Below the pieces are notes generated by a model. That model had not been told where the DNA came from. It saw nothing but the letters and a program-made list of their open reading frames with translations, and made no database searches. Below, piece by piece: positions 2 through 48,928 of a DNA stretch of 64,000 nt. The stretch is taken from assembly GCA_902494875.1 (NCBI GenBank), contig CABUUO010000002.1, positions 32,547-96,546 of the forward strand, in the 5' to 3' direction. The number at the start of each line of letters is the position of its first letter. The stretch's first letter is position 1. Source of the DNA: an uncultured Pseudomonadota bacterium. Lineage in GTDB: Bacteria > Pseudomonadota > Alphaproteobacteria > RF32 > CAG-239. The translations under genes were made by a program, and so were the position numbers.

Positions 2-316
2 GAAGAAAGCACTCCGCAAAACGGCGATGAGAACCTGGTTGAAGACCCGGTAGAAGATTGGCTTGCAGAAGAAGGCAAAACCCTGAAAACCCTGCTGACC
101 GAATGGAGCGACAAAGCCGGCTGGAGACTGATTTGGAACTCTAACCGCAATTATACATTGACTGCAGGCGCAATGTTCCGCGGACGCTTTGCCGACGTCA
201 GTTCAGCGCTGATCAGAGCTTTTGCAAGGGCGCGGCCGGCTCCGATTGCAACATTTTATAAAGGCAACCGCGTATTGGTTGTAGAGACACTGGAGGATGA
301 AAATGCATATGAATAA
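2..316 (+). CDS. C-terminal fragment of a pilus biogenesis protein encoded upstream of the secretin (PilM/TcpQ-like position)
   Basis: Reading frame 2 is open from the window edge to a TAA at 314-316 and overlaps the secretin start. The family assignment is by gene position only. Confidence 0.35.
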   Translation, partial: EESTPQNGDENLVEDPVEDWLAEEGKTLKTLLTEWSDKAGWRLIWNSNRNYTLTAGAMFRGRFADVSSALIRAFARARPAPIATFYKGNRVLVVETLEDENAYE

Positions 317-1919
317 TTATACCAAAGCGGTTTTGGGCTTTTTTGCCGCGGCAGCCATCGCCTCATGCTCCATGTCAACGCATCTGGACGCCGAAATTGA
401 ACGCGAAATCGAAACGGCGACCAAACTGAAAGAAGAATCAAAAGCTCCGGGAAAGCCGATTGCTGATGATATCGTACGGGTTAAGAACGACATCTGGCTC
501 GGAGACAAATCTCAAGTCGAATATGAAGGCGAACCCCTTCCCAGTTATCTGGAAGGCAAAGACGGCGTGACGCTTATCAGCAACAGGCCGATTACGCTGT
601 TTGAAATCGGTGACATGATTACCAAAATCACGTCCGTGGGCGTTCGTTATGCTTCTCATCTTGAGAAAGACATTCGCGACATGGCCAAGGAAAACAAGCC
701 GGATCCGGAAACGATTAATGCGGACTGGACCGAACCCGATAAAATGCTGGTTTCCTATAAAGGCCCTTTAAGCGGTTTGCTTGACGAAATTGCCACTCGG
801 TTCGGCATCTGGTGGAAGTATGAAAAAGGACAAATTTACTTCTACAAATATGAAAGCAGGACTTTCGTTCTCTACAGCTTGCCGACAAAACCCTCGCTCA
901 GCGTTTCCATGGGCGGAAGCTCCTCGGGCGAGAGCGGAAACGCGTCAACTACGCTTACCAGCCAGATTGACGTTGCTTTATGGGACAACATTGAAAAAGC
1001 CATTACATCCATGATCAGCGGCGATTCAAAGCTGACAATGGATCCGGCCAACGGAACGATTTCAGTTTTGGCGACACCGATCGAGGTTAAAAGAATTGCA
1101 AAATTCATCAACGAACAAAATGCAAGACTGTCCCGTCAGGTTGCCATCAGCGTAAAAGTCCTGCAGGTCACGGTTGCCGATTCAGACAAATACGGCCTGG
1201 ACATTGCCGCGGCGTTTAACGACGGCGTGACCAGCTTGGGCGTAGCCGGCGCATCCGGTTCGACCGGCGAAACGACCAATAACCTGCTGATGAGCATAGC
1301 CCCCGGCAACTGGAAAGTTGACAGCTTTATTCAGGCGCTGTCTACCAAAAACGATACGTCTTTGGTTACCAGCGGTACGGTTACGACGCTGAACAACAAG
1401 CCGGCGCCGATCCAGGTCACCAAAAAACAGAACTATATTTCCGAAATTACAAAAACAAACTCCGGCAGCAGCGACGGCAGCAGCGACTATGACATTTCAA
1501 CCACGACAGAAGAAATCGAAACGGGTTTCACGCTTGACGTTCTGCCGAGGATTCTGGAACACGGACGTTTGATGATGATGTTCAACCTGACTCTGTCAGA
1601 CCTGATTTCACTGGAGAAGGTTTATCTGACAACCAGCGAAAGCGGCGAAGCAGATTCAGGACAATACATTCAGAACCCGATTGTCGAAACCCGCGGCTTT
1701 ACGCAGGAAGTGGCGATGAAATCCGGTGAATCCCTGATTTTGAGCGGTTATGAACGCGTTGAAAGCAAAGCAGACAAAACCGGTGTCGGTTCGGCAGAAA
1801 ACTCTCTGCTCGGCGGAACGGCCAGCGCTGAAAAAACCAGAAGCATGCTGGTTATCATTTTGACGCCGGTGGTTTTGGAATCGCCGCTGACGCCGGAATC
1901 CAGAATGAAAACATACTAA
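297..1919 (+). CDS. Type IVb pilus secretin, lipoprotein (PilN of R64 / BfpB / TcpC family)
   Basis: N-terminal lipoprotein signal with lipobox (AAAIAS-C). C-terminal secretin-like region (VLATPIEVKRIAKFI...QVAISVKVLQV, Gly/Ser/Thr-rich beta-domain). It is the first gene of a pilus operon. Confidence 0.7.
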   Translation: MKMHMNNYTKAVLGFFAAAAIASCSMSTHLDAEIEREIETATKLKEESKAPGKPIADDIVRVKNDIWLGDKSQVEYEGEPLPSYLEGKDGVTLISNRPITLFEIGDMITKITSVGVRYASHLEKDIRDMAKENKPDPETINADWTEPDKMLVSYKGPLSGLLDEIATRFGIWWKYEKGQIYFYKYESRTFVLYSLPTKPSLSVSMGGSSSGESGNASTTLTSQIDVALWDNIEKAITSMISGDSKLTMDPANGTISVLATPIEVKRIAKFINEQNARLSRQVAISVKVLQVTVADSDKYGLDIAAAFNDGVTSLGVAGASGSTGETTNNLLMSIAPGNWKVDSFIQALSTKNDTSLVTSGTVTTLNNKPAPIQVTKKQNYISEITKTNSGSSDGSSDYDISTTTEEIETGFTLDVLPRILEHGRLMMMFNLTLSDLISLEKVYLTTSESGEADSGQYIQNPIVETRGFTQEVAMKSGESLILSGYERVESKADKTGVGSAENSLLGGTASAEKTRSMLVIILTPVVLESPLTPESRMKTY

Positions 1920-1939
1920 ACTTGATTTAGGAAAAAGCA

Positions 1940-3220
1940 ATGGCGCTTGAAGATGCTAATTTGACAGACATTAATCCTGATGCAGAAGGGAAACGCACTT
2001 GGGGAACCAAAATAACGGTTGACGGCACCAGTTATGCCACCAGTCTGTTCTGGCAGCCCCTGCAAAATCAGGAAGATCCGTTTACGGAAGTCGGAGAAGC
2101 GTCCGAAGGTATTCTGGAAGGCGCCGATTTGTTTTGTATCAAGCCGGGCAAGGCACCGCAGTTTGGTATCTGCGTTTCTCACGAAGGTTATAAGAGCGGA
2201 GAAAACGTCGCCGCGGTTGCTTTGGCAACCGCGCTGTCCGACCGTTCGTCTTTTGTGGCAGTTTTTCAAACCGACAAAGGCTGGTGGTATACCTGCGTCA
2301 GAAACGACATTATCCTTTCTGACGGCGATATGCTGTTTTTAAACGAAGAAGACGCCAAAAACCAATTTATTTCGATGTTGGCCGTACCGGACTGGGGACG
2401 TAAAATTGCACCGGCGGCTTGGGGTATTGAAGAAACCGAGGATATTGAGCTGGAAAAATTGATGCAGCGCGGATTACACTCCAAACTGCAAAAGATCAAA
2501 GGGCTCCGCGGCGCCAAACTGCTGATGGTTATCGGCATTTCGGCAGTAGTTGTTTTCTGGCTTTTGTCTAATATTATTAACGCATTGTTTTTTACCCCCA
2601 AAAAGCGTCCGGTCATTGTTCCGGTTCAGCCTAAAATAATCAAGCCGGTAGTGGAAAAAGCGCCGGAGGTTAAACCTTGGGAACGCTTAAACGATCCGTC
2701 TCAGGTTATGAGCGGATGCATGGCAAAAATCGAACAGCTGGTCAGAATTATGCCGCCCGGATGGCAAATTGGCAACCTCAGCTGCACTCCGACCGGCGTA
2801 TCAACCAGTTGGAACAGACAAATCGGACGTTTGTCCTGGGTAAAAAAAGCTTTGGACGTGTCGGGAATTCAGTTTTCATATCGGACGTTTTCCGATACGG
2901 GCGACAGTATAGCGGCGGGCGTATCGTTGGGAAAAATCGTTCAGATTTCTTCACCGCCGATGAAAAGTCCGACGGAGCTTCGGGAGATGCTGAACGACTT
3001 TTTCCAAGGCATTAACCAAAACGTCGCTTTGAGCGACGGTTCTTATACATCGCCGGAAAAGAATATATATCGCTTTATCGGCTTTCGGTTTTCATCAACG
3101 TACAATCCGGAAGTATGGAGCGGCTTGTTAACAAAATTTTCAGGACTTGAGATTAAAGTTATAAATTATTCACCCAGTACAAATGTCTGGACCTACGAGG
3201 GGGCTATTTATGCATTATAA
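1940..3220 (+). CDS. Pilus assembly protein, PilO(R64)-like, single transmembrane segment
   Basis: 426 aa with one central hydrophobic helix (LLMVIGISAVVVFWLLSNIINALFF). Its size and position after the secretin match R64 PilO / Bfp assembly components. Confidence 0.4.
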   Translation: MALEDANLTDINPDAEGKRTWGTKITVDGTSYATSLFWQPLQNQEDPFTEVGEASEGILEGADLFCIKPGKAPQFGICVSHEGYKSGENVAAVALATALSDRSSFVAVFQTDKGWWYTCVRNDIILSDGDMLFLNEEDAKNQFISMLAVPDWGRKIAPAAWGIEETEDIELEKLMQRGLHSKLQKIKGLRGAKLLMVIGISAVVVFWLLSNIINALFFTPKKRPVIVPVQPKIIKPVVEKAPEVKPWERLNDPSQVMSGCMAKIEQLVRIMPPGWQIGNLSCTPTGVSTSWNRQIGRLSWVKKALDVSGIQFSYRTFSDTGDSIAAGVSLGKIVQISSPPMKSPTELREMLNDFFQGINQNVALSDGSYTSPEKNIYRFIGFRFSSTYNPEVWSGLLTKFSGLEIKVINYSPSTNVWTYEGAIYAL

Positions 3221-4619
3221 TATGAAAAAAATATTTGTGACAACGGCGCTGGCGTTAATATTCGGTTTAACCTGTTCCGGAAATGTTATGGCACAGGCTG
3301 CCATTTCTTTGTCTGATGATGCAAAAAAAGCCGACACCCAATCTGCTGCCAACGAGATTCCAGATGAAATATCTCTGTTTGGCGATGACGGCGACGATAT
3401 TCTGACACCGCCGGCGAAAACCGAACCAGAAACAGCGAAAACCGAAAATAAACCGGAAGCAGCCAAAGATGACAAACAGGCTCCGTCGGAAACGGCAGCT
3501 CCGGGTCTGCCGGTTTTAGACATGCCGGCACAGCCCGAAAACGTTGAAAAGCCGCAAATTCCGGCCATTCCCGTTATCCCGGCCCCGGCGGCACAACAGG
3601 CCCCCCAGCCCGCAGCCATTCCCGAACCCAAACAGCAGGTTCCGGTCTTCAGCCAGTTGGGCAGTCAGATTATTGAAGACATTGACGACGACGTCTTTGC
3701 CAAAATGTCTGATCTTGAAAAAGAAACGGCAGTTTTGAATTTGGAACTGCGCAAAGAAAAAGTCAAAAACGACATTGAGGCTCTGCGCGCCATGCGCGAC
3801 AAAGCCCAAGAAGAGGAAGAAGCGCGCAAACACGCCGAAAAGCTTAAACAAATCGCTCTTGAAAAAGAGGAAGAGCGAAAAATCCTTTTGGAACAGCAAA
3901 AGTTAAAAAATCTTGAAATCGTTTATGAAAAAGAACGTCAGGAAAAGCTGTTAAAGGCATATAAAAACAAAATGCTGGAAGAAAGCCAGAAGTGGATAGA
4001 ACGCAATGCCGAAAATTATAAAGAAATCGCGGACTTGAAAAATGAACGGCAAAAACTTATTAATGACTTTAAGGGCAAGTTTGTCCAACTGACCAAAATG
4101 GCCGATGAAGCAACAAACGAGGCAATCCGGGTACGGGATAATTATGCCAAGACAATATCAGATCTGCAAACTCAGATATCTATTCTCAATGCTCGTCTGG
4201 AAGCAAGCGAGAAAACCAATCCGTTTGCGGAAAACGGCGGAGAACAAGCGGCTCCGCTTGAGGAAGAAGAGGCCTTAAAGCTTAGTGATTTGTATGCCGT
4301 TATGGAAATTCGCGGCAAAGGAAAAAATTTGAGCGCAAAATTGATTAACGAGAGCGGAGCACCATTCTTTGTCAAAGTGGGTACCGTGTTGCAAAGCGGA
4401 CATGTTGTTGACGAAATATCCTCAACTTATGTCCGGGCCGACAAAGAGGGCAGCAAAGATTATCTTTATTTCTCGGCCGGCGGCGTTCTTGATCAGGAAC
4501 CGGTGACCAACGAGGAGTTGAAAGTAAAGGTTTCCGATCCGGAGCAAGCTCCGGCGCCGAGCGGTATTGTTTCAAACCAAGGGATTCCCGGAATTGCTAG
4601 AGAAATGACCGTCAGATAG
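3210..4619 (+). CDS. Secreted pilus assembly protein with Pro-rich linker and long coiled-coil (PilP-like C-terminal domain)
   Basis: Signal peptide MKKIFVTTALALIFGLTCSGNVMA, preceded by a GAGGGGG ribosome-binding site. It has a Pro/Ala/Gln-rich segment, a Glu/Lys-rich heptad region and a C-terminal beta-rich domain. Confidence 0.4.
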   Translation: MHYNMKKIFVTTALALIFGLTCSGNVMAQAAISLSDDAKKADTQSAANEIPDEISLFGDDGDDILTPPAKTEPETAKTENKPEAAKDDKQAPSETAAPGLPVLDMPAQPENVEKPQIPAIPVIPAPAAQQAPQPAAIPEPKQQVPVFSQLGSQIIEDIDDDVFAKMSDLEKETAVLNLELRKEKVKNDIEALRAMRDKAQEEEEARKHAEKLKQIALEKEEERKILLEQQKLKNLEIVYEKERQEKLLKAYKNKMLEESQKWIERNAENYKEIADLKNERQKLINDFKGKFVQLTKMADEATNEAIRVRDNYAKTISDLQTQISILNARLEASEKTNPFAENGGEQAAPLEEEEALKLSDLYAVMEIRGKGKNLSAKLINESGAPFFVKVGTVLQSGHVVDEISSTYVRADKEGSKDYLYFSAGGVLDQEPVTNEELKVKVSDPEQAPAPSGIVSNQGIPGIAREMTVR

Positions 4620-4621
4620 TC

Positions 4622-6310
4622 ATGGCAGATGAGATGGAAAACGAACCGGAAGAGAAAGAAGTCAAGGATAGTCAGGAAAAACCGGCCGACGGAGTACCCA
4701 GCGTAGCGGTTTCAACCGGTCCTGTTGCGGCTCCGATTACCCAGTCTTTAGGCAAGCTGGAACTTTATTTTGCCAACGGACGAAAATTGCTCACCGTTCC
4801 CGGCGGAACTCTTAATATCAATGATGACACGCGCCGGCTTCTGGCCTTGTTCTCTGACGGAAGTTTTTTGGTAGCCGAATCACATAAGTTCGACGGACGC
4901 GTTTTGAGCTTTGAAGTTTTGGCACGCAGGAAACGGATTAACATCTTAAAACCGGTCTATCTGTCTCAAAACGAGCTTAACGCCATTTACAACTATGCCG
5001 AAAGAAACGTTGCCGACGCCGATGCCGACGAAGATCTTGACGCATTGCAAATGCAGAAAGACTTTGTGAACGTTATTGCCCGGGCCGCGGAAAAAAAGGT
5101 GTCCGATATTCACGTTGTGGTGGCAGACAGCACGCAGATTATGTTTCGCGTCAACGGCATGATGTCCATTGAAATGGAATATAACAAAGACTGGGGCGAA
5201 TCTTTTGTCCGCGCGGCCTTTGCTTCGGCGGACATTTCGGACTCCAACTATGCGCAGAACGAATTTCAGGGCGCACAGAAGCTGGGGTCGACCCCTCTGC
5301 GCGGGTCTAAAGGCAAGCTGATGCTGCCGCATAACGTTTTGGCCATCCGCTTACAGTTTAATCCGATTGCGTTTGGTTCTCAATATTTGGTCATGCGTCT
5401 GTTGTATGCCGACGACAATCCTAACGGCAGCGGCGATTTGGCATCGTTAGGACTGGGCGAATATGAAGAGAAGCTGTTTTACCGTCTGAGAGCGGTTCCG
5501 ACCGGAGTCAGCATCGTTTCCGGTCCGACCGGTTCCGGAAAATCAACGACCCTGCAAAGAAACATGATTAAACTTTTGCAGGAAAAGAATTACGAAATTA
5601 ATCTGATTACGGTGGAAGATCCGCCGGAATATCCCATTCCCGGCGCCAGACAGATGCCGGTGACAAACGCCAATACTGAAGAAGAAAAAGATGAACAGTT
5701 CACCAAAGCGCTATCGGCGGCGCTGCGTTCCGACCCTGACGTCATGATGGTCGGTGAAATTCGTTCGCTTTCGGCTGCACAATTGACTTTTAAGGGCGCT
5801 TTGTCCGGACACGGTATGTGGACCACGCTGCACGCCAACTCAGCGCCGGCAATTATCCCCCGTCTGCGCGATATGGGCGTGGAGACATTTAAGCTCGGCG
5901 ACCCGGAGCTGGTTAAAGGATTAATCGGTCAGCGTCTGTTCAGAAAGCTCTGCCCGCATTGCCGCAAATCAGTCAAGGAAATGCTTGACGAACCGGCAGT
6001 ACAGCGTCTGAAAGTAGCTTTGGGCGATTTTGGCATTGAAAACACCTATGTACGCGGTCCCGGCTGTAAGTTCTGCGGAGGTTCCGGAATCAAAGGACGT
6101 ATGAGCGTGCCAGAGATTATTCTGCCGGATGCCATGTTTTTGGAACTGATCATTAAAGGCGAAACCCGTAAAGCCATTGACTACTGGACCAGCGATCTGG
6201 GCGGCAGAACGATGAAAGACGCGGCTATCGAAAGAATGCTGAAGGGATATATTGATCTTGACGAAGTAGAACGCTGGTGCGGACTGATGGACCAGCGCCC
6301 GGTTTATTAA
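4622..6310 (+). CDS. Type IV pilus assembly ATPase (GspE/PilB/BfpD/R64-PilQ family)
   Basis: Walker A motif GPTGSGKSTT and Asp-box/His-box region. It has a C-terminal tetracysteine motif (CPHCRK...CKFCGGSG), typical of secretion ATPases. Confidence 0.85.
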   Translation: MADEMENEPEEKEVKDSQEKPADGVPSVAVSTGPVAAPITQSLGKLELYFANGRKLLTVPGGTLNINDDTRRLLALFSDGSFLVAESHKFDGRVLSFEVLARRKRINILKPVYLSQNELNAIYNYAERNVADADADEDLDALQMQKDFVNVIARAAEKKVSDIHVVVADSTQIMFRVNGMMSIEMEYNKDWGESFVRAAFASADISDSNYAQNEFQGAQKLGSTPLRGSKGKLMLPHNVLAIRLQFNPIAFGSQYLVMRLLYADDNPNGSGDLASLGLGEYEEKLFYRLRAVPTGVSIVSGPTGSGKSTTLQRNMIKLLQEKNYEINLITVEDPPEYPIPGARQMPVTNANTEEEKDEQFTKALSAALRSDPDVMMVGEIRSLSAAQLTFKGALSGHGMWTTLHANSAPAIIPRLRDMGVETFKLGDPELVKGLIGQRLFRKLCPHCRKSVKEMLDEPAVQRLKVALGDFGIENTYVRGPGCKFCGGSGIKGRMSVPEIILPDAMFLELIIKGETRKAIDYWTSDLGGRTMKDAAIERMLKGYIDLDEVERWCGLMDQRPVY

Positions 6311-6326
6311 AGTTTAGGAGAGAATT

Positions 6327-7460
6327 ATGGCAGGCGAACAGGAAAAAAGAAGCGCGTCCAATTCGATGCAAAAGGCTATGCGCAAGCTCAATACGGTTGA
6401 GGAATATTACGCTAAGCTGATTTGTAACTTTTCCAATGAAGCACGATTAAAACTCTATCGCAAAATCGCCTCGCTGATGAGAAACCGCTTTTCTCTGATG
6501 AGTGCTTTGGATATGCTTCATGACAGCGCCAGCGACGGCGGCAAAAGTCCGGGAGAACCGATGGCTATCGCCATTGCCTGCTGGGGTCGGGCGCTCAACA
6601 ACGGTTTGACGTTTTCCGACGCTCTGAAAGGCTGGGCTCCGGACCGTGAACGACTGATGCTGTCGGTCGGTGACGTCTCAGACCTGGAAGGCGCTCTGCT
6701 CAACCTTATTCGTGTTACCGAAGGTTCAACAAAGATGATCCGTCCGATTATCGGCGCAATTGCTTACCCGACCTTTTTGTTTTTGATGGCGGTTTTGATT
6801 ATTTACGGTATCGGCGTATATATGGTGCCGCCGATGTTGGATGCGGCGCCCGGCGTTCGTTGGCGAGGACTGGCAAAAGATCTGGTTGATGTTTCGGCCT
6901 GGATTCAACAATATTGGCTGGTTGCATTTTCAGCACTGCCGATCACAATGCTGGTCATCTACCTGACAATCGGACTCTGGACCGGACCTATCCGCGCCAT
7001 TGTCGATAATATGCCGCCTTATTCACTTTATAAGGTGTTCGTCGGCATCAGTTGGCTGCTGGCCTTGTCCGCACTGGTTAAGGGCGGTACGCCGGTATCA
7101 ACGGCGATGCGGGCCTTGAGGCGCGACGCGACCCGCTATTTGAAAGAAAGAATTGACAAGACGCTGGTCTTCATCAACAACGGTGACAACCTTGGTATTG
7201 CCCTGAAAAAAACCGGACTTGATTTTCCCGATAAGGAAGTTATTGCCGATTTAAAAATTTATTCGGAATTGGATAACTTTGAAGAAGCTCTGGAATCGCT
7301 GGCCAATCAATGGCTGGAGGAGTCCGTTTATCTGATTGAGCAGAAGGCGGCTTTGTTAAATATGGCGGCAATTCTAAGCGTCGGCGGCGTTATCGCCTGG
7401 GCCGTCATGGGCACCTTTGAAATGCAAGACCAAATTACCAGCAGTATGGGACAAGGCTGA
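6327..7460 (+). CDS. Pilus inner-membrane platform protein (GspF/PilC/BfpE/R64-PilR family)
   Basis: 377 aa polytopic membrane protein immediately after the ATPase. An AGGAG ribosome-binding site precedes it. Confidence 0.65.
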   Translation: MAGEQEKRSASNSMQKAMRKLNTVEEYYAKLICNFSNEARLKLYRKIASLMRNRFSLMSALDMLHDSASDGGKSPGEPMAIAIACWGRALNNGLTFSDALKGWAPDRERLMLSVGDVSDLEGALLNLIRVTEGSTKMIRPIIGAIAYPTFLFLMAVLIIYGIGVYMVPPMLDAAPGVRWRGLAKDLVDVSAWIQQYWLVAFSALPITMLVIYLTIGLWTGPIRAIVDNMPPYSLYKVFVGISWLLALSALVKGGTPVSTAMRALRRDATRYLKERIDKTLVFINNGDNLGIALKKTGLDFPDKEVIADLKIYSELDNFEEALESLANQWLEESVYLIEQKAALLNMAAILSVGGVIAWAVMGTFEMQDQITSSMGQG

Positions 7461-8047
7461 TGGAAAAGGCAAAAATAATTTTTAATAAAGCAATAAAAAT
7501 TTTTCATTCACCGGAAAGAATCGGCATTGCCGCGGCCGGAGCCGTTGTCATAATTGCCGCGGCAGCTTGGTTTTTGCTTAAAAGTCCGAAACCAGACGCC
7601 AATATTGTTACGGCCGGCAATCAAATCAGCCTGTTGACAGATAATGTACGAAAATTTTACCGTAATCGTCCCGATGCTTGGGGACTAAATACGCAATCTG
7701 TTTTGAAAAATGCAATTGCTCCCCAGGAAATGGTTCAAAACGGCAAATTGATTAACGCATTAGGAAAGGAAACCTTGGTCGGTGCGGATTCAAACGGCAC
7801 GACGGTTATGCCCGGCAGCAGAAATTTTGCCATTACTTTCAGAGGACTGGATTATGAAGAATGCGTTGAACTGTCCGCACTGGCTCCCGACGAAAAGACA
7901 GCATTGAGCCTTACTTCGGAAACGATTGCCAACGAGACAGAAACAATGTTTATCTGGGGCGGAGAACATCCGCTTCCGATAACAAGAAAAGCTGCGGAAG
8001 AATTCTGCAAACAACAAAATTCTCTCATTTGGAACATATTGTTATAG
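7460..8047 (+). CDS. Divergent pilin-like protein (minor pilin candidate)
   Basis: N-terminal hydrophobic helix. Its C-terminal region matches the pattern of the two downstream pilins (F-x-G-L-x-x-[DE]-x-C-V-x-L-[AS], with a second Cys near the C-terminus). Its start overlaps the platform gene's stop (TGATG). Confidence 0.4.
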   Translation: MEKAKIIFNKAIKIFHSPERIGIAAAGAVVIIAAAAWFLLKSPKPDANIVTAGNQISLLTDNVRKFYRNRPDAWGLNTQSVLKNAIAPQEMVQNGKLINALGKETLVGADSNGTTVMPGSRNFAITFRGLDYEECVELSALAPDEKTALSLTSETIANETETMFIWGGEHPLPITRKAAEEFCKQQNSLIWNILL

Positions 8048-8127
8048 TTTCTGTTTTACAGAATAAAGTTATATGTTTCAAAGCGTAATTATGACTAAAG
8101 ATAGGCTTATTTATCTTTTATTAATAA

Positions 8128-8142
8128 GTTATAGTTAAGATG
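8128..8142 (+). promoter_or_regulatory. Candidate -10 / conserved upstream motif gttataGttaAgatg for pilin gene 1
   Basis: Same 15-mer (2 mismatches) found upstream of pilin gene 2; contains TATAGT. Confidence 0.25.
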
Positions 8143-8183
8143 TGAGAAGAAAAAACTTTGAAGTGTGTTTTAGGAGAAAAGAG

Positions 8184-8798
8184 ATGAAGAGTTTATTCAA
8201 AAATGAGCAGAGCGGACGTTCCATGGTGGAAATGCTCGGCGTGCTCGCGATTATCGGCGTATTGTCGGTCGGCGGTATCTCCGGTTATTCGAAAGCCATG
8301 GCTAAATTTAAACTGACCAAGGCGCAAGACCAGTTGTCCATGATGATTATGAACATCAGAACCGCATTTGCAACCTCCCCTGGTTATCCGGGTTTAACAA
8401 CAAAAAATGCTATTGATTACAAGCTGGTATCTCAGGAAATGGTCGTTGCCGGAAGTACTTCGTTGATTAACGCATTTGGCGGCGATACGATTGTTGAAGC
8501 AATTAACGGAGCGGATGGTACTCCTAACGGTGCATTCCAGATTGTATTCTCCGGTCTCGGTAAAGATGTCTGCGTCAGCTTGGCTACCTCTGATTGGGGT
8601 ACTGACGGCTTAATTGGTATCGGCGTTGCCTCTACCAAAATCAGTAAAATTACAGGTACGCCGTCCGCTGCAGTTTCATTTGCAGGTGGCGGCAGTTTGA
8701 ACGGGCCTAAGGCTCTGCCGTTGTCTATTTCTGACGTTCGTAAGTCCAATGCCTGTGGTTCGGATAACACCAACTCGATTACCTGGGTTTATAACTAA
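8184..8798 (+). CDS. Type IV prepilin (major pilin candidate 1)
   Basis: Leader ...NEQSG followed by RSMVEMLGVLAIIGVLSVGG, with Glu at +5 after the predicted Gly cleavage site. An AGGAG ribosome-binding site precedes ATG 8184. An upstream in-frame GTG at 8142 is an alternative start. The C-terminus has a disulfide pair. Confidence 0.75.
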   Translation: MKSLFKNEQSGRSMVEMLGVLAIIGVLSVGGISGYSKAMAKFKLTKAQDQLSMMIMNIRTAFATSPGYPGLTTKNAIDYKLVSQEMVVAGSTSLINAFGGDTIVEAINGADGTPNGAFQIVFSGLGKDVCVSLATSDWGTDGLIGIGVASTKISKITGTPSAAVSFAGGGSLNGPKALPLSISDVRKSNACGSDNTNSITWVYN

Positions 8799-8824
8799 AG
8801 TTATAAGAGGCATAATTTTCTATA

Positions 8825-8856
8825 AAAAGGTGTGTTTTGACACACCTTTTTATTTT
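8825..8856 (+). terminator. Rho-independent terminator after pilin gene 1
   Basis: GC stem (ggtgtg...cacacc) followed by a T-run. Confidence 0.5.
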
Positions 8857-8874
8857 ACCCGAAATAAATCTATG

Positions 8875-8889
8875 TTATAATTAGGATGA
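8875..8889 (+). promoter_or_regulatory. Candidate -10 / conserved upstream motif gttataAttaGgatg for pilin gene 2
   Basis: Contains TATAAT. It is the paralogous motif to 8128-8142. Confidence 0.25.
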
Positions 8890-8915
8890 TATTATTTAAT
8901 TAAGAGGGGTCAAAA

Positions 8916-9503
8916 ATGAACAGAAACGAACAATCCGGAAGATCAATGGTTGAAATTCTCGGCGTTTTGGCCATTGTTGGTGTGCTTTCTGTCGGCGGTA
9001 TTGCCGGCTATTCAAAAGCGATGGCTAAATTTAAGCTGACAAAGGCACAAGACCAACTGCAGATGATGGTGATGAATATCCGCACGGCTTACGTCACTTC
9101 CCCGGGATTTCCGGATCTTAATACCGCGCATGTAATTGAATATAAACTGGCCTCCTCCGAAATGATGGTTGATTCAAAAAATCTGCTGAACGCCTTTGGC
9201 GGAAAGGTTTATGTTGAGGCAACCGAAAATCTGGAAAGAAATTCCGACGGCGCGTTTGCTATTCTTTATGCCGGTCTGGGGCGGGACTCTTGCGTCAGTC
9301 TGGCAACCTCCGACTGGGGTACGGACGGACTAATCGGGATTTACGTTGATTCGACGACCGACCCGATTAACAAGATCGAAAATCCTAACGCATTGTCCAA
9401 AGAACAACTCAAACAACCTTCAGAACTTCCCATTTCGCTGACAACGGCACGAGAAAAATGCAGTTCGGACAATAACAACCTTATAACCTGGTATTATCTT
9501 TAA
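8916..9503 (+). CDS. Type IV prepilin (pilin paralog 2)
   Basis: The N-terminal 60 aa are nearly identical to the upstream pilin (MNRNEQSGRSMVEILGVLAIVGVLSVGGIAGYSKAMAKFKLTKAQDQL). The C-terminal domain is diverged. Confidence 0.75.
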   Translation: MNRNEQSGRSMVEILGVLAIVGVLSVGGIAGYSKAMAKFKLTKAQDQLQMMVMNIRTAYVTSPGFPDLNTAHVIEYKLASSEMMVDSKNLLNAFGGKVYVEATENLERNSDGAFAILYAGLGRDSCVSLATSDWGTDGLIGIYVDSTTDPINKIENPNALSKEQLKQPSELPISLTTAREKCSSDNNNLITWYYL

Positions 9504-9510
9504 GACTGTA

Positions 9511-9538
9511 AAAGCACCGATTACGGTGCTTTTTTTAT
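9511..9538 (+). terminator. Rho-independent terminator after pilin gene 2
   Basis: agcaccg-atta-cggtgct followed by TTTTTTT. Confidence 0.6.
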
Positions 9539-9567
9539 GTCGTTCCGGTGCTTTCTTTTGTTCTGTT

Positions 9568-9745
9568 ATGCCGGACCTGATCCGGTATCCAGATCAAACA
9601 TTGATTCCTGCTTCCACTTGGACTCCGAGGCAAGCCCGGAGTGACCCAGCGTGGGCGTGCAGCGCATTATTTGTCATGTTTCGCTACGCTCAACATCCCA
9701 GCCGATTAACAAGGCTGAGGCCCTTCGACAAGCTCAGGGTGACAA
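9568..9745. repeat. Intergenic repeat element, copy A (resembles a small non-autonomous mobile element)
   Basis: Shares conserved blocks with 43268-43465: gccggacctgatccgg, tgacccagcgtgggcgtgc[ag]gcgcattatt, cagccgattaa, gctgag, ttcgaca, tcagggtgacaa. It starts with the palindrome ccggacctgatccgg. Confidence 0.6.
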
Positions 9746-9754
9746 CAAAGACAT

Positions 9755-11194
9755 CTAAAACAGACTATGTATGATTTTTACCATATCCGCCATTTCTATT
9801 TTTTGCGGCAAAGGGTTCACTTTTTGCGACTTGGAATAAACCAGCAGCGGAATATTCCGGTAGCCGAATTCTTCAACGCCGTGGTCTCCGTAAATGACAA
9901 ACAGCGAATCGTCCGGGCTGTTTTCGACCAGCCAACGCAATGACTGATCGACAAAGTTTACGGCATTGTAATAGTCATATTTCCGCTCCGGCGTTTTTGC
10001 AAACAGCGGACGCGGATTGTTTTTAACTTTATACTCGCTATGAGAACTGAGCGTAATGATAAAATTAAAAAGCTTATCATCCGAATGTTTTCGATTTTGT
10101 TTCAAGACAAAGTCAAACAGATCCCTGTCCGATATTCCCCAAAAATCGTCAGGATACCTGTCTTTCATATCCTCGTAGAAATAAATATCTTCATATTGCT
10201 GAGCTCTGACATGAGGACCGCGGTTGAAAAAGTCGGATTTAAAATTATGATAGAAACTCGTATGATATCCATTTGCTTTGGCTTTTTGCGACAGAGATTC
10301 CAAACGCGGCCAAACTTCCTTCGGAAGAAACATATGATAGATGATGGTAAACTCTTTTTCGGTAAAACCGCCGCTGTTCACAAAAAAATCGGTATTGGCA
10401 GAGGCGCCGTGAACCTTCTGGTTGACTTCGGCAAGCGTGCCTTCGGCGGCAAGACCGTTTAGAAACGGCGTCAATTCCCGTCCGTCAACTTTTTTATTGA
10501 TAACGTTATATGTCAGGCTCTCGGTTTGAATGACATAAATATGCCGACTTCCGGGGAAGCTGTATTTTATTTGCGGTTCACTTTCAGACAATTCAATAAT
10601 TTCATCTAAAATTTTACCGCTGCGTTTGCTTATTACCGTCTCATAAAGCCAGCAGGAGCGATAGCCGAAATTGAGGCAGGCATCATTAAAGAAACTCTGA
10701 GAAAAAAACAATATGGATACCGAGGCAAAGCTCGCATATATCAGCAAAGCCAGCGGAATAAGAAAAATCCAGAAAAAACGGCGATATTCTCTCAATATCG
10801 GATAGCAGCGGTTATAAAGCCCAAAATTGCCAAGACCGACAAGCAAAACTATCAAACTTTTATAATTTAAAACCGCTCCCGGAACCTTACTTAAAAACTC
10901 CGCCCCTTCACGATACTGAAACCAGATAATCGACAAAGACAGCGGCGGAACAAAATAGTTATGATACAGCAGCAGTCCCGAAGTTAAGACTATCTGAAAA
11001 GCTAGGGCCAGCCAGACCAAAATCCGGGGAAGAAAAAACAATATGCCCCAGAAACACATTCCGAAGATTAAAATAAAAAATCCGGCGGACATTATGTCCA
11101 AATCTGGAAAATACAATTTATTGGCTACAACGCCTTCCACACCCATCAAAAGTGCCAAAAGCAATATAAAAATGAACTTTTTATTATCTTTCAT
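9755..11194 (-). CDS. Membrane-anchored sulfatase-family transferase (LtaS / phosphoethanolamine- or phosphoglycerol-transferase-like)
   Basis: N-terminal domain with about 5 transmembrane helices. The C-terminal domain is alkaline-phosphatase/sulfatase-like (…LSSHSEYK…, VIYGDHG). It sits between the pilin genes and the PilT-like ATPase. Confidence 0.6.
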   Translation of the reverse strand: MKDNKKFIFILLLALLMGVEGVVANKLYFPDLDIMSAGFFILIFGMCFWGILFFLPRILVWLALAFQIVLTSGLLLYHNYFVPPLSLSIIWFQYREGAEFLSKVPGAVLNYKSLIVLLVGLGNFGLYNRCYPILREYRRFFWIFLIPLALLIYASFASVSILFFSQSFFNDACLNFGYRSCWLYETVISKRSGKILDEIIELSESEPQIKYSFPGSRHIYVIQTESLTYNVINKKVDGRELTPFLNGLAAEGTLAEVNQKVHGASANTDFFVNSGGFTEKEFTIIYHMFLPKEVWPRLESLSQKAKANGYHTSFYHNFKSDFFNRGPHVRAQQYEDIYFYEDMKDRYPDDFWGISDRDLFDFVLKQNRKHSDDKLFNFIITLSSHSEYKVKNNPRPLFAKTPERKYDYYNAVNFVDQSLRWLVENSPDDSLFVIYGDHGVEEFGYRNIPLLVYSKSQKVNPLPQKIEMADMVKIIHSLF

Positions 11195-11244: not shown

Positions 11245-12252
11245 TTGAAAAAGATTGTACAGTTTATTTACAGAAAGTGTGATTATATGGTTAAACTAAA
11301 CAGTATCCGGTTTTCTGACATCTATATTACGCCGGACAAAACCTGCTTTATTCCCGACGGCGTGACCCAGAACGGTCTGGCCATTATCAAACCCGAAGAT
11401 TTTGACGTTTTTTATAATTTGATTGAGGAATCTTGGGACGGAGAAAATCCCAGCTATTCGGTACTGTATGAAAACATATTTTACCGCGTTGAACGCACCG
11501 TAGCCATTTACGGCGTTCAATACTGCGCCCGAAAGATGCCCGAGAAAGTGCCGCCGCTGGCGGCTCTTAACTTTCCGCGCGAACTGTGCCGTCATCTGCT
11601 TTCGCTCAGTTCGGCCAGCGGCCTGATTTTATGGTCAGGACCGACCGGCGCAGGAAAAACGACTTCCATCTCCGGACTGCTGAAAGAATATCTGACCATG
11701 GAAGGCGGTTTTGCCTATACTATCGAAGACCCAACCGAAATGCCTTTGGACGGCATTTACAAATCAATGAAAGGCGGCTTGGGACTTTGTAAACAAACCC
11801 AGCCGGTTAACGGCAACTGGGGTGCTTCGCTGAAGTCTGCCCTGCGTTCAAAACCACGTTTCATTTTCGTCGGCGAAATCCGCACGCCGGATACGGCCAG
11901 CGAAGTTCTGCGCGCCGCAACTTCAGGCCATCTGGTTTTATCGACCATCCACGCCAACAACATTGCCGACGCCATTAACTCGGTAGTTAAATATGCCTCT
12001 TCCACGACCATGAGCGAAGAACTGGCCTATGACCTGTTTTCACGCGGCATTCTCGGCGTAATGCACCAAACGCTGATCGGCGTTCATGACAAAAGACCGG
12101 CAATCAATTATCTATTTGCCAATCCGGATACGACCAAGGGCGACCAAGTCCGCGGCATTATCAAAGGCGGCAATCTCAATCTCGGAACATCCATTGAAAC
12201 GCAGATGACCAGAATGCGCAAAGGAATGAGCCTGTTTCCCGACTTGTCTTAA
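11245..12252 (+). CDS. PilT/PilU-like pilus retraction ATPase
   Basis: 335 aa with Walker A motif SGPTGAGKTTS and the conserved Asp/His boxes of PilT-class ATPases. An alternative start is at 11287. Confidence 0.7.
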   Translation: MKKIVQFIYRKCDYMVKLNSIRFSDIYITPDKTCFIPDGVTQNGLAIIKPEDFDVFYNLIEESWDGENPSYSVLYENIFYRVERTVAIYGVQYCARKMPEKVPPLAALNFPRELCRHLLSLSSASGLILWSGPTGAGKTTSISGLLKEYLTMEGGFAYTIEDPTEMPLDGIYKSMKGGLGLCKQTQPVNGNWGASLKSALRSKPRFIFVGEIRTPDTASEVLRAATSGHLVLSTIHANNIADAINSVVKYASSTTMSEELAYDLFSRGILGVMHQTLIGVHDKRPAINYLFANPDTTKGDQVRGIIKGGNLNLGTSIETQMTRMRKGMSLFPDLS

Positions 12253-41787: not shown

Positions 41788-42516
41788 ATGAGCAGCCCGA
41801 ATACAAACAAAAAACTGCCGGTCTATCTGAAAGAAATTTACGGAGACTTTTACAACAACAAGAAGTTATGCGCCTGGGCCGACAAGCCATGGCTGCGAAC
41901 GCTGTTAAGCCTTGGCAACAATCTGCGGCTGGTCGACGCTTCCCTGCGCGAAATTGCTCAGGGTGACAAGGTTTTGCAGATGGGAGCCACTTTCGGCGAA
42001 CAGATGGACAAGGTTGCCATGCGGGTCAGCCGCTACGGACAATATGACGTTTTGGACGTCAGCAACATTCAGATACGGCGTTGCAAGGAGAAATACGGAA
42101 AACTCTATAGCCAGATGAATTTTATCTGCCAGAACGCCAACACGCCGGTTAAAGGCGATTATGACGTGGTGCTTTTATATATGCTGCTGCATGAGGTTCC
42201 GCATATCCAGAAAGCCAAAATTCTCAAAGCGGCGCTGGACAGCGCACGCGAGGGCGGAAAAGTGGTGGTCATTGATTATCACGAACCGCAGAAATGGCAT
42301 CCGCTGAAATATTTTGCAAGAATGTTCAACCGCCTGTACCAACCTTTTGCCGAAGTTCTGTGGGACCGGGAAATCCCGACTTTTATCAAGGACAAGACAC
42401 CCTACGCTTTCCGGCGGTCGTTGTATTTCGGCGGTATGTATCAAAAGGTCGTCATCGAAAAGAAATATACCGATATGCCGCAGCAGCCGATGCCGGCATA
42501 CAATCCCTGGAACTGA
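41788..42516 (+). CDS. Class I SAM-methyltransferase-fold protein with degenerate motif I (RquA-like candidate)
   Basis: VLQMGATFG in place of the GxGxG motif I. It carries DVVLLYMLLHEVP post-I/II motifs like the UbiE/UbiG family. 242 aa. Confidence 0.4.
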   Translation: MSSPNTNKKLPVYLKEIYGDFYNNKKLCAWADKPWLRTLLSLGNNLRLVDASLREIAQGDKVLQMGATFGEQMDKVAMRVSRYGQYDVLDVSNIQIRRCKEKYGKLYSQMNFICQNANTPVKGDYDVVLLYMLLHEVPHIQKAKILKAALDSAREGGKVVVIDYHEPQKWHPLKYFARMFNRLYQPFAEVLWDREIPTFIKDKTPYAFRRSLYFGGMYQKVVIEKKYTDMPQQPMPAYNPWN

Positions 42517-42759
42517 ATGCCCTGTAACAAAAATTTCATTAAACCGACGGCTACTATATTTTGACAGCAGGCTTAAAATTCGCTATACTGAAAGTGTTAT
42601 TTTAAGTCGTTGTTTATTATTTGTCTTGTTTTCTTTTGCGGAAAACAATGAATTATTATTATAAAAAAACGACTTCATAATCAAAAAAATAAAAAAAATA
42701 AATAGCGGATATGGCTTAAAACACTCAGAACGCCCTCTATTCCATAAAAAATTAAAATT

Positions 42760-43215
42760 ATGAAGACCTTAAAAAAATTTTTCGTAGTTTGTGTCTGTGT
42801 TCTGGGTTTGTCATCTTGCGGAACACTCGGCGGATCGCTTGGTTCAGGAACGGTTGGCGGCGCTTTGACTGACATTTTTGTCGGCAATCTCGGCACCAAC
42901 AATACCCCGATCGGTGACGCGATGGACAACGTTTCCGGACGCTGGTATGACCGTACCCGCAACGCAACCATCACCACCACGGCACAAACGGCAACCAAAG
43001 GTATTTATCAGGTTGCCAACCGTGACGGACGTTATCTGCTTTATCTGGCACCATTCAGCGAGCAGATGAAAGCCATCCCGTATGGTGTCAGCGTTATTCA
43101 GTATAAACCGGCTTTCGACGGCAAAAGGCTTTACTGGAAAGTTAACACCACGCGCGGCGTCTATACCATCAGCCCGGCCAGCGGACAATGGTATGGGAGC
43201 ACGGACAAGTATTAA
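42760..43215 (+). CDS. Lipoprotein, hypothetical
   Basis: Lipobox VLGLSSC followed by Gly-rich linkers. Confidence 0.4.
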   Translation: MKTLKKFFVVCVCVLGLSSCGTLGGSLGSGTVGGALTDIFVGNLGTNNTPIGDAMDNVSGRWYDRTRNATITTTAQTATKGIYQVANRDGRYLLYLAPFSEQMKAIPYGVSVIQYKPAFDGKRLYWKVNTTRGVYTISPASGQWYGSTDKY

Positions 43216-43246
43216 AAAGAAGCACCCTTGTGGTGCTTCTTTTGTT
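43215..43246 (+). terminator. Rho-independent terminator
   Basis: gaagcacc-cttg-tggtgcttc followed by a T-run. Confidence 0.55.
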
Positions 43247-43267
43247 ATTGATTCCATATTAAACCTG

Positions 43268-43465
43268 GATGCCGGACCTGATCCGGCATGACCCAGCGTG
43301 GGCGTGCGGCGCATTATTTTCATGTTGAGCGGAACGAAGTGCAGTCGAAACATCTCAGCCGATTAATATTGCTGAGATGGAGTTCGACAACTACGTTGCT
43401 CACTCACTTCGTTGCTTCACTTCGTTCAGGATGACAGTTTACGTTTGACGGGTTCAGGGTGACAA
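43268..43465. repeat. Intergenic repeat element, copy B (resembles a small non-autonomous mobile element)
   Basis: The same conserved blocks as copy A at 9568-9745. It has an internal cacttcgttgcttcacttcgttc mini-tandem. Confidence 0.6.
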
Positions 43466-43469
43466 TGTT

Positions 43470-43511
43470 AAAAGAAGCCCCAGATTTCGTTGTTGAAATC
43501 TGGGGCTTTTT
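43470..43511. terminator. Terminator downstream of tsf
   Basis: agccccagatttc-gttgttg-aaatctggggct followed by a T-run. Confidence 0.55.
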
Positions 43512-43532
43512 AGTATTGCAAAATTGCGCGGC

Positions 43533-44459: not shown

Positions 44460-44566
44460 TAATAAAAATCCCCTTTTGAATTTGAATATGGCGATATTCT
44501 AAGAAACCATCCTTAAAATACCGCCATGATTTTCTTGATAATATCTGAAATTAAAGTCGTCAGAAA

Positions 44567-45370
44567 CTATTCTTCAGTTTTTTCTTCGGCTTTAGCGGCT
44601 TTTTTCGGAGCTCTTTTCTTCGGAGCTTTTTCAGCAGCGGCTTCAACCATTTCTTCGACTTTAACGCCCTGAGCAGCGATTTCGGCGGACATACCGTCCA
44701 AAACTGCGCCGGAAACCAGTTCCGAATAGAATTGGATGGCACGGATCGCATCGTCGTTGCCCGGTACCGGGAAGTCTACGGCATTGGGGTCTGCATTGGT
44801 ATCGCAGATACCGATTACAGGAATGCCCAATTTTTTAGCTTCTTTAATGGCCAGGCTTTCTTTCGGCGTGTCGATAACGAACAGCAGGTCAGGCTGACCG
44901 CCCATATTCATAATGCCGCCGAGTTCCAGAGCCAGTTTTTCCTGTTCTTTTTTCAGGTTCAAAACTTCTTTCTTGGTGTAACCCTCGTAAGAGTTTTTCT
45001 CAGCCATTTCGTTTAATTTAGCAAGGCGGGAGATTGATTTGTAAACAGTCTTCCAGTTGGTGAGCATACCGCCCAGCCAACGGTGGTTTACATAGTACTG
45101 TCCGCAACGCTCGGCGTTTTCCTTGATGATGTCCTGAGCCTGTCTTTTGGTGCCGACAAACAAAACCTTACCGCCGTTGGCAGCGATCTCGCGAGCCGCA
45201 TTCAGGGCAGAATACAGCATCGGGTAGGTTTTCTGCAGGTCGATAATATGAATGTTGTCTTTTTTACCGTAAATGAACGGAGCCATTTTCGGGTTCCAGC
45301 GACGGGCATGGTGACCAAAGTGAACGCCAGCTTCAACCATCTGACGCAATGTAAATGTTGGAATTGTCAT
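44567..45370 (-). CDS. rpsB: 30S ribosomal protein S2
   Basis: GVHFGHHARRWNPKM signature; upstream of tsf. Confidence 0.9.
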   Translation of the reverse strand: MTIPTFTLRQMVEAGVHFGHHARRWNPKMAPFIYGKKDNIHIIDLQKTYPMLYSALNAAREIAANGGKVLFVGTKRQAQDIIKENAERCGQYYVNHRWLGGMLTNWKTVYKSISRLAKLNEMAEKNSYEGYTKKEVLNLKKEQEKLALELGGIMNMGGQPDLLFVIDTPKESLAIKEAKKLGIPVIGICDTNADPNAVDFPVPGNDDAIRAIQFYSELVSGAVLDGMSAEIAAQGVKVEEMVEAAAEKAPKKRAPKKAAKAEEKTEE

Positions 45371-48538: not shown

Positions 48539-48614
<76 letters not shown>

Positions 48615-48654: not shown

Positions 48655-48730
48655 GGGGTCATAGCTCAGTTGGGAGAGCGATTGGTTCGCAATCAATAGG
48701 TCGGGAGTTCGATCCTCCCTGGCTCCACCA
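48655..48730 (+). tRNA. tRNA-Ala (anticodon CGC)
   Basis: GGGGTCATAGCTCAGTTGGGAGAGC, G3:U70, anticodon loop TTCGCAA, with CCA encoded. Confidence 0.8.
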
Positions 48731-48837
48731 ATTTTTCAAAAGCACTGTTTCTTTCGGCAGTGCTTTTTTGTCAGCCGCTCAAACTTCGCTTAACGCTCGT
48801 TTTCCCGGGGGAGGATCACTTCGGCATCTAATTGCGC
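48717..48837 (+). repeat. Direct repeat copy 1: the last 14 nt of tRNA-Ala(CGC) plus 107 bp of downstream flank, including the terminator hairpin
   Basis: It is about 97% identical to 48929-49050 (2-3 differences). The two copies are separated by a 91 bp spacer. Confidence 0.8.
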
Positions 48838-48928
48838 CGTCATTGCTTTTGCAATCCCGTCTCAATAAGATGTTACGAAGAACTGGCAGAACCCAAACAC
48901 CATACACAGGTGTTTGGGTCTTAGCGTT

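Follow-up and report, generated by a model that had tools for sequence, protein, structure and literature searches.

The window, the whole stretch of 64,000 nt that was analysed, contains two related elements of 150-220 bp that are non-coding, hairpin-rich and placed within spacers between convergent genes. Copy A (9600-9748, together with an extra hairpin at 9568-9588) lies between the last PilS-type pilin gene of a type IVb pilus operon and a minus-strand sulfatase-family gene (9755-11194). Genes for VirB4/TrbE and TrbC are found about 11 kb further upstream, past the start of the pilus operon. Copy B (43247-43468) lies between an orphan 151-aa lipoprotein gene and tsf, among the core genes tsf, rpsB and gyrB, in a region that is syntenic with sister species. 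The distance between the two copies is 33.7 kb and their surroundings are otherwise unrelated.

An earlier note on this DNA had placed a Rho-independent terminator just upstream of each copy, and both terminators were predicted, in each case for a plus-strand gene. The stem AAGCACC..GGTGCTT recurs at 43220 and 48622, which indicates a generic terminator form that is probably not part of the repeat. The features of both loci are collected in Table 1.

Table 1. Features at the two copies and their borders, by position in the window.
Feature	Position	Strand	Remarks
Intrinsic terminator of the PilS-type pilin gene (8916-9503)	9510-9533	+	10-bp stem and T-run, predicted
Partial duplicate of the terminator 3' arm and T-tract, CGGTGCTTTCTTTTGTT at 9546-9562	9534-9567		22-nt indel here is polymorphic
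A-specific insertion with extra hairpin ATGCCGGACCTGATCCGGTAT (9568-9588)	9568-9599		displaced copy of the B main hairpin
Conserved core A: ATTGATTCC 9600-9608, main hairpin ACTCCG/CGGAGT 9622-9642, 31-nt block 9642-9672	9600-9680		ungapped 73-nt alignment
Variable hairpin domain A, bounded by TTGTCA (9671-9676) and TGACAA (9740-9745)	9671-9745
Domain A: hairpin ATGTT/AACAT, 11-nt loop at 9681-9691	9676-9696		inverted in some strains
Domain A: hairpin CAGCC..GGCTG	9699-9717
Domain A: terminal unit GCCC..GGG-TGACAA	9720-9745
Intrinsic terminator of the 151-aa lipoprotein gene (42760-43215)	43215-43243	+	12-bp stem, predicted
Conserved core B: ATTGATTCC 43247-43255, main hairpin ATGCCGGA/TCCGGCAT 43269-43289, 31-nt block 43289-43319	43247-43326
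Variable hairpin domain B	43317-43465		several hairpins and repeats
Domain B: hairpin ATGTT[22-nt loop]AACAT	43322-43353
Domain B: hairpin CATCTCAGC..GCTGAGATG	43351-43379
Domain B: long-range inverted repeat	43332-43344 with 43415-43427
Domain B: 13-nt tandem duplication	43405-43426		one unit lacking in L002 and L024
Domain B: two GTTCAGGrTGACA units	43424-43436 and 43452-43465
tsf terminator	43472-43511	-	17-nt arms, one mismatch; borders copy B on the right

Alignment and makeup of the two copies

The similarity between A and B is true homology and not chance. The two copies were aligned by blastn at E = 3e-11, and a profile built from both gave nhmmer E-values of 1e-47 and 1e-42, although these scores are partly circular because the copies are the training set. 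A 31-nt block, TGACCCAGCGTGGGCGTGC[A/G]GCGCATTATTT, is identical at 30 of its 31 positions, has no other site in the window and was absent from 100 shuffles with 3 mismatches permitted. The palindrome GCCGGACCTGATCCGG is present at 9570-9585 and 43271-43286, against a chance expectation of 0.04, and the end block TCAGGGTGACAA is common to both copies (9734-9745 and 43454-43465), as are the smaller blocks CAGCCGATTAA, GCTGAG and TTCGACA. The conserved blocks quoted in the earlier note were thereby all located where it had placed them, and its judgement that the similarity exceeds chance has held. Because the proteins encoded upstream of A and B are unrelated to each other, and the copies lie far apart in unrelated contexts, the pair is not a gene-carrying segmental duplication.

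The proposed alignment has stood as regards the shared blocks, but not as regards the palindrome as the start of copy A. The best register is ungapped and pairs 9600-9672 with 43247-43319 (73 nt, 75% identity), so that the element begins with ATTGATTCC in both copies. In this register, the hairpin of A that is position-homologous to the palindrome of B has a different sequence, ACTCCG..CGGAGT, and the palindrome of A is an extra, displaced copy of the B hairpin inside a 37-nt A-specific insertion. The insertion also has CCAGATCAAAC, which forms a quasi-palindrome with the ATTGATTCC that follows. Several strains carry a GG>AA polymorphism in the stem of the extra hairpin, an A/G polymorphism is found at 9597, and the insertion appears to be decaying.

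The window has five occurrences of a short motif, GTCAYYCYGRRC, where 0.17 would be expected, and four of the five are in copies A and B. Three matches and a degenerate fourth were found in a 716-nt spacer of the sister species L058, and none at the other sister loci. GTCA heads the hairpins on the minus strand (GTCA-YYCYGRRC...), and the stems of these units differ (CTCCG, TGCCGGA, CCCTGA). Two of these units in L058 flank a perfect 28-nt palindrome in inverted orientation. Based on the GTCA-headed hairpins and on the enrichment of the motif in A, B and the L058 spacer, both copies read as mosaics in which a short hairpin unit recurs around a core that is not palindromic.

Strains differ mostly by hairpin-driven events. 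The 11-nt loop of domain A is inverted exactly between strains, and the tsf terminator has its 6-nt loop (43489-43494) in inverted form in L024 and L048. The mini-tandem that had been described in copy B is present and is polymorphic between strains. We propose that the outer hairpin domain evolves by replication-slippage-type events, namely loop inversions, growth of quasi-palindromes and small tandem duplications. The locus is a clear natural example of how hairpin-rich spacers evolve: its loops become inverted, hairpin arms are duplicated and quasi-palindromes lengthen, and a short core meanwhile remains unchanged.

Such events also suit an account in which the pair is a by-product of DNA dynamics without specific function. 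Hairpin-rich DNA beside a terminator would have been copied once, by ectopic recombination or template switching, gene conversion would keep the 31-nt block alike, and at most the DNA would contribute to generic termination or to protection of mRNA 3' ends. This account is possible, though we regard it as doubtful. The loop inversions, the 22-nt indel, the 13-nt duplication and the quasi-palindrome of the A insertion all agree with it, as do the finding of two copies only and the position of both between convergent genes and adjoining terminators. Three of five variant alleles in A have the B state, a hint of conversion that is not significant. Clusters of hairpins behind stop codons have been proposed as intrinsic terminators, as outlined in PMC8355165. 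The two copies resemble the clusters of that outline in having adjacent hairpins downstream of stop codons in inter-operon spacers; they differ in that the flanking genes already have canonical terminators, and a generic role in termination leaves the conserved non-hairpin block unexplained.

Coding status, constraint and structure

A short ORF predicted inside copy A (9526-9774) had been judged probably spurious, and this has been borne out. Its relatives are only its own orthologues, indels are not multiples of three, and the shared block lies in different frames in A and B. In addition, the 22-nt indel, which sits between repeated terminator arms and is absent sequence in strains L011 and L061, deletes the start region of the ORF. 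The ORF should not be a gene call. A small peptide on either strand was considered and rejected: there is no ribosome-binding site, the ORF lengths are unequal (plus strand, 13, 22 or 48 aa; minus strand, 33 versus about 150 aa), and substitutions occur without third-position bias.

Comparison with L024, a lineage about 92% identical to the window over 12 kb, was used to measure constraint on copy B. Three substitutions in 208 nt and two indel events (222 nt in all) were found in the element, against 38 differences at 304 four-fold sites of the neighbouring genes (10/79 in the lipoprotein gene, 23/132 in tsf and 5/93 in the methyltransferase gene). Taken over its full length, copy-specific hairpins included, copy B is about nine-fold more conserved than the adjacent four-fold sites, which is not what a functionless by-product would lead one to expect. 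Conversion between A and B cannot account for this conservation.

Copy A presents a divided picture. A stretch of 61 nt in its core (9612-9672), comprising the main hairpin and the 31-nt block, shows no variation across the window and 18 other assemblies (10 haplotypes), and none of the 11 polymorphic events of copy A falls within it, for which we estimate a probability of (1 - 61/186)^11, or about 0.013. An invariant core in varying surroundings again counts against a by-product. The 3' half of copy A counts in its favour, as it varies faster than neighbouring four-fold sites; relative to strain L009, copy A shows four SNPs and the loop inversion in 149 nt, and the four-fold sites differ at 6 of 818. 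This half, or copy A as a whole, may be non-functional. As far as sequence conservation tells, the element is under partial selection and is not neutral junk.

The main hairpin is found in the same place and with the same 21-nt length in both copies despite differing stem and loop sequences. All 10 model pairs are kept (10/10), with 100% of cells paired compared to 25-45% in slid controls, and two pairs are compensatory between A and B (C-G to U-A and U-A to G-C). The 31-nt block of A contains a further inner hairpin, CCCA-GCG-TGGG. Folding, a check suggested in the earlier note, gave negative z-scores for both copies on both strands (minus strand, -3.1 for A and -4.4 for B; plus strand, -1.75 and -2.99), the minus folds having taken in flanking terminator hairpins. 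A covariance model scored 104 bits on core A and 108 bits on core B, the same sequences from which it had been built.

The model also matched positions 11936-11972 of the sister species L058, in the tsf-methyltransferase interval, as GUUCCGAAACAAGUUCGGAA-UGACC-UCAAAGAGG. The orientation to tsf is that of copy B, the layout is hairpin, TGACC and small hairpin, and both stems have changed compensatorily. The match is weak, with E = 0.0034 inside the 2-kb interval but 0.51 over all 305 kb searched. A similarly built unit at the orthologous locus of a sister species speaks, with the strength of that match, against a by-product. Conserved structure with covariation and constraint, a mark of small RNAs, is therefore present in a small sample, the covariation consisting of one A-versus-B contrast and one weak sister-species match. 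Constraint, hairpin conservation and position together argue for a functional structured element, for which an RNA is the simplest form.

Copy number, distribution and mobility

The earlier note had interpreted the repeat as a dispersed, structured non-coding element such as a REP, a retron RNA or a small non-autonomous transposon. Its non-coding and hairpin-rich character has been confirmed, but a dispersed multi-copy family has not, since two copies only were found. Searches with blastn, nhmmer and the covariance model returned no third copy in the roughly 81 kb of this genome that were searched, made up of the window and about 17 kb of added flank, or in about 200 kb of sister-species DNA. 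Exact matching of the most conserved 19-mer, which diverged copies would escape, gave eight matches in 185,579 GTDB species genomes, seven of them chance matches in G+C-rich genomes and one the copy B orthologue of L002, a MAG 97.5% identical to the window over 8 kb. The same exact scan of JGI metagenomes gave 11 matches, of which only that in L024 is real, and it too is the copy B orthologue; the others again arose by chance in G+C-rich DNA. Viral contigs had 0 matches for two short conserved exact patterns, and blastn found no match to copy B in 72,556 plasmid records (E <= 0.01) or in phage records. A cmscan against Rfam 15, of the whole window at gathering thresholds and of the two loci with E allowed up to 10, returned terminator look-alikes only. 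The earlier note would have given up its finding if no further copies existed genome-wide; within the searched DNA the result is close to that absence, though not fully there.

Proteins of the window have exact matches on contigs assembled from human-gut metagenomes. Copy A occurs in each of the 18 other assemblies examined, without insertion polymorphism, so that no empty site is available for comparison. The phosphoribosyltransferase gene, a housekeeping neighbour, was found in ten contexts, each of which had copy A together with the pilus operon, and all contigs that cover the copy B locus contain copy B. Next to tsf, the element is missing from sister species whose EF-Ts is 86-91% identical, and their tsf-methyltransferase interval has different orphan ORFs; at the sister tsf loci examined (L032-L040 and L055-L058) there was no clear copy, only the weak L058 match. 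Close EF-Ts relatives are labelled 'Alphaproteobacteria bacterium' or 'Azospirillum sp.' in their source records.

Four Logan contigs end at one base in copy B. A G/T strain polymorphism lies exactly 30 nt upstream of that base, a spacing that a 31-mer assembly graph would produce, and so the breaks carry no information on copy number. Homology to a 111-118-nt repeat family of sister species was rejected, as local alignment was no better than with shuffles (z < 2). Called proteins of the spurious ORF, which could have revealed more copies, returned only the orthologous cluster.

Terminal inverted repeats and target duplications, which the earlier note had proposed to look for, were not found in any form consistent between the two copies. 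The only inverted repeat common to both is TTGTCA/TGACAA, of 6 nt, and it bounds the 3' half alone. Copy B is bracketed by an inverted repeat of 20 nt and 80% identity (43231-43250 and 43463-43482), which overlaps both terminators and has no counterpart at A. No equal-length direct repeat borders both copies, and a AAAAGAAGC[A/C]CC likeness at B is part of two terminator arms. Pfam scans of 36 selected ORFs of the window, those near A and B among them, found no transposase, integrase, reverse transcriptase or relaxase; some of the remaining ORFs have precomputed annotations. A mobile-element reading is not supported, and the repeats should not be labelled as mobile elements in annotation.

Comparison with known systems leads in the same direction. 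MITEs of the Correia, RUP and ERIC type are similar in being 150-220 bp long, non-coding, intergenic and foldable, whereas the present element has no shared terminal inverted repeats, no target duplication, no insertion polymorphism (18 assemblies), two copies and block-wise divergence. Retron msr-msd RNA is likewise structured and non-coding, contains inverted repeats and measures about 200 nt, but here there is no reverse transcriptase among the 36 selected ORFs, no shared a1/a2 repeats and no Rfam match. The element fails the tested defining features of both MITEs and retrons.

A decayed non-autonomous mobile element, or a REP/BIME-like mosaic, has to be weighed separately. GTCA-headed hairpin units would once have been mobilised by an enzyme encoded elsewhere, for example a REP-associated tyrosine transposase. 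We consider this unlikely, although the enrichment of GTCAYYCYGRRC, mostly in A and B with more in the L058 spacer, the inverted L058 units and the inverted repeat around copy B can all be cited for it. The extra hairpin of A, a displaced B hairpin, also behaves as if it were a separate module. Both copies are placed between convergent genes, as REP and MITE elements typically are. Like the REP/BIME elements of enterobacteria and pseudomonads, the copies are extragenic, hairpin-forming, repeated, located at gene 3' ends between convergent genes and built as modular mosaics. The units here are headed by the tetranucleotide GTCA (minus strand), as REPs are by GTAG. However, REPs occur at tens to hundreds of loci, whereas only two were found in about 81 kb, these hold all but one of the GTCAYYCYGRRC matches of the window, and the representative genome has a single 19-mer match. 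REPs keep one palindrome per family, whereas the hairpin sequences here vary from unit to unit, and it is a 31-nt non-palindromic block that is most conserved. The inverted repeat of B overlaps terminators and is lacking at A, no target duplication is common to the copies, no transposase was seen among the 36 selected ORFs, and copy A is fixed in place in 18/18 other assemblies. Conserved blocks lie among scrambled ones, but old transposed copies would be expected to diverge uniformly. Families of stem-loop intergenic sequences have been surveyed systematically in many bacteria (PMC2267715), and the element resembles the families catalogued there; its anatomy resembles that of 3'-UTR-derived small RNAs as well.

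The pair could instead be a protein-binding site at the DNA level, such as an origin of transfer or recombination site tied to the neighbouring type IV secretion or type IVb pilus genes, with a second chromosomal copy. This is very improbable. Copy A does lie at the end of the type IVb pilus operon and near VirB4/TrbE and TrbC, and its layout, with a conserved G+C-rich block behind a hairpin, may loosely resemble that of oriT nick regions. Nevertheless, neither the 36 selected ORFs nor the precomputed annotations of the 8 kb to the left of copy A include a relaxase, coupling protein or integrase, the plasmid records contained nothing similar, and copy B is located among syntenic core genes. 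The similarity between the copies also runs on both sides of the core, unlike that of hybrid attachment sites. As attL and attR of an island the copies were rejected, the 33.7 kb between them being core DNA that is syntenic with sister species. Integron attC sites, uptake-sequence pairs and group II intron ends were dropped after their consensus features had been compared by eye.

A candidate structured RNA pair

The reading that we favour, at a probability of about 0.4, is that A and B are paralogous copies of a small structured RNA module, probably read from the minus strand, with outer hairpins that change by loop inversion and small duplication. The data show homology, a non-coding nature, kept hairpins, selective constraint and two copies only in the searched DNA; transcription, the functional strand and any regulatory role are inferred. 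The module would be confined to one lineage of uncultured human-gut Alphaproteobacteria. Each copy would consist of a constrained core of about 80 nt (ATTGATTCC, a 6-8-bp hairpin and the 31-nt block with its small CCCA/TGGG hairpin) and a fast-evolving domain bounded by TTGTCA...TGACAA. The module would act as RNA, the minus strand being more likely the functional one.

The two transcripts would arise in different ways. Copy A lies 6 nt past the stop codon of the sulfatase-family gene in the minus-strand reading, which suggests that it would be transcribed as the 3' UTR of that gene. No terminator is predicted from this stop codon to the hairpin 9533-9510. The stem of that hairpin is flanked by an A-run and a T-run, so the predicted pilin terminator may also work on the minus strand, as the 3' boundary of a transcript over copy A. 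The transcript of copy B would start from a promoter-like site on the minus strand, TTGTCA-18-TAAACT (43465 to 43436). The hairpin at 43215-43243, which on this strand reads GAAGCACC..GGUGCUUC-UUUUU, would also end such a transcript. Both minus-strand RNAs would thus close with the core, an A/U-rich stretch and a terminator hairpin, the usual 3' anatomy of bacterial small RNAs and 3'-UTR-derived RNAs.

The strand call is weak. It is suggested by the location of A behind a stop codon with no intervening terminator, by the promoter-like site of B, by the 3' anatomy and by the lack of a downstream plus-strand terminator for copy A. The evidence from G-U pairs is mixed: the GG>AA change in the extra hairpin of A keeps pairing on the minus strand only, whereas a C>T change in the B hairpin 43351-43379 (L024) and a G-T pair in the extra hairpin of A keep it on the plus strand only. 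No promoter common to both copies was predicted on either strand, and the minus-strand terminator at A has four U residues only. A terminator scan made no minus-strand call at either locus; its sensitivity is limited, as it also missed the obvious tsf terminator.

Sibling and 3'-UTR-derived small RNAs, such as CpxQ and SroC, offer a close comparison for a structured RNA pair in several respects. The minus-strand order of stem-loop, A/U-rich stretch and terminator is alike, as are the location of A behind a stop codon, the promoter-like site of B and the existence of two paralogues. The differences are that the copies share no promoter and have no Rfam relative.

A broader possibility, which we hold to be improbable, is that the core (hairpin, TGACC and small hairpin) and the GTCA-headed units could represent an undescribed structured element. 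Such an element might be a small-RNA family of a new type, or a REP-like system of low copy number that has its own enzyme; the gut clade labelled 'Alphaproteobacteria bacterium' or 'Azospirillum sp.' would have it in common, and each species would have reshaped it differently at a tsf-methyltransferase hotspot.

The element is genuine and in general terms belongs to a known kind, with two copies and a distribution restricted to one lineage, and its interest is modest pending expression or a wider family. If the core is a functional RNA, it would be among the first candidate regulatory RNAs of a common uncultured group of human-gut Alphaproteobacteria. One of its copies would then be attached to a gene of the cell envelope (sulfatase family) that adjoins a type IVb pilus operon.

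Inverted hairpin loops

Between strains, hairpin loops have been inverted exactly and on a minute scale, as comparison of the window with L009 (a strain that also carries copy A), L024 (the lineage approximately 92% identical over 12 kb) and the further compared sequences L010, L013, L048 and L063 revealed. The loop of copy A reads TCGCTACGCTC in one orientation and GAGCGTAGCGA when inverted, and that of the tsf terminator changes from GTTGTT to AACAAC. Inversion of the copy A loop marks one haplotype clade and is in every case accompanied by G>A at position 9720.

The tsf–methyltransferase interval

Both in the window and at the orthologous sister-species loci L032, L034, L055 and L058, the stretch separating tsf from the methyltransferase gene forms a hotspot of variation. 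Its orphan ORFs differ by lineage in length (144, 151, 173, 181, or 191 + 154 aa) and also in strand. An antisense ORF of 169 codons, which is unusually long for a G+C content of 47%, starts within copy B and spans the entire lipoprotein gene; this ORF was not accepted as a gene, given that the gene calls of all assemblies place the plus-strand gene there. Within the methyltransferase gene, at a distance of 1.3 kb from copy B, lies a third exact TCAGGGTGACAA, which is probably a chance occurrence. At this site, a flanking base is changed in L024, such that the minus-strand 12-mer is GTCACCCTGGGC and not GTCACCCTGAGC.

A recombination boundary near tsf is suggested by sequence comparison with L024, since divergence at four-fold sites reaches 41% across rpsB and the tsf–rpsB spacer, whereas it is just 5–17% in the genes on the opposite side of tsf.

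Coordinates of the features discussed
Feature	Sequence	Positions	Remark
Copy A loop	window	9681-9691	
tsf terminator loop	window	43489-43494	
tsf–methyltransferase interval	window	42517-43532	
Antisense ORF	window	42844-43353	minus strand
Third TCAGGGTGACAA	window	41958-41969	
rpsB and tsf–rpsB spacer	window	44460-45370	
Two tRNA genes	window	48539-48611, 48655-48727	precede the tandem duplication
Tandem duplication	window	48716-49050	212 nt
111–118 nt repeats	L032	3430-3872	
111–118 nt repeats	L034	3457-3872	
111–118 nt repeats	L058	11745-11894, 12126-12265, 3652-3724	
Palindrome-centred unit	L058	11936-12081	
Perfect 28-nt palindrome	L058	12001-12028	TATTATCGCCTATCGATAGGCGATAATA
Type IVb pilus operon, DNA examined	window	297-9503	
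Type IVb pilus operon, DNA examined	L053	1-10000	

Repeats near tRNA genes and tsf

The sister species (L032, L034, L058) possess a distinct family of 111–118 nt repeats, whose similarity to copies A and B was not significant (z < 2). These repeats form tandem arrays of 3–4 units adjoining two tRNA genes. Other copies are dispersed and border a palindrome-centred unit in the tsf–methyltransferase spacer. In L058, this unit consists of a perfect palindrome enclosed by two inverted hairpin-TGAC units, and one of these two units, GAGACCCTGAAACAAGTTCAGGGTGAC, matches the 3' end of copy A (9717-9743) with 81% identity. In the window, the tandem duplication directly past two tRNA genes comprises a tRNA 3' end, a terminator and approximately 75 nt of downstream sequence, with an identity of 98–99%.

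The type IVb pilus operon

The operon encodes a TcpQ-like protein, a secretin, a PilO-like protein, an ATPase and a platform protein, together with three pilin-like genes. Neither a relaxase nor an integrase was seen around it in the window and L053 DNA; a VirB4/TrbE gene and two TrbC genes adjoin it. Two of the three pilin-like genes are tandem paralogues with 71% DNA identity.
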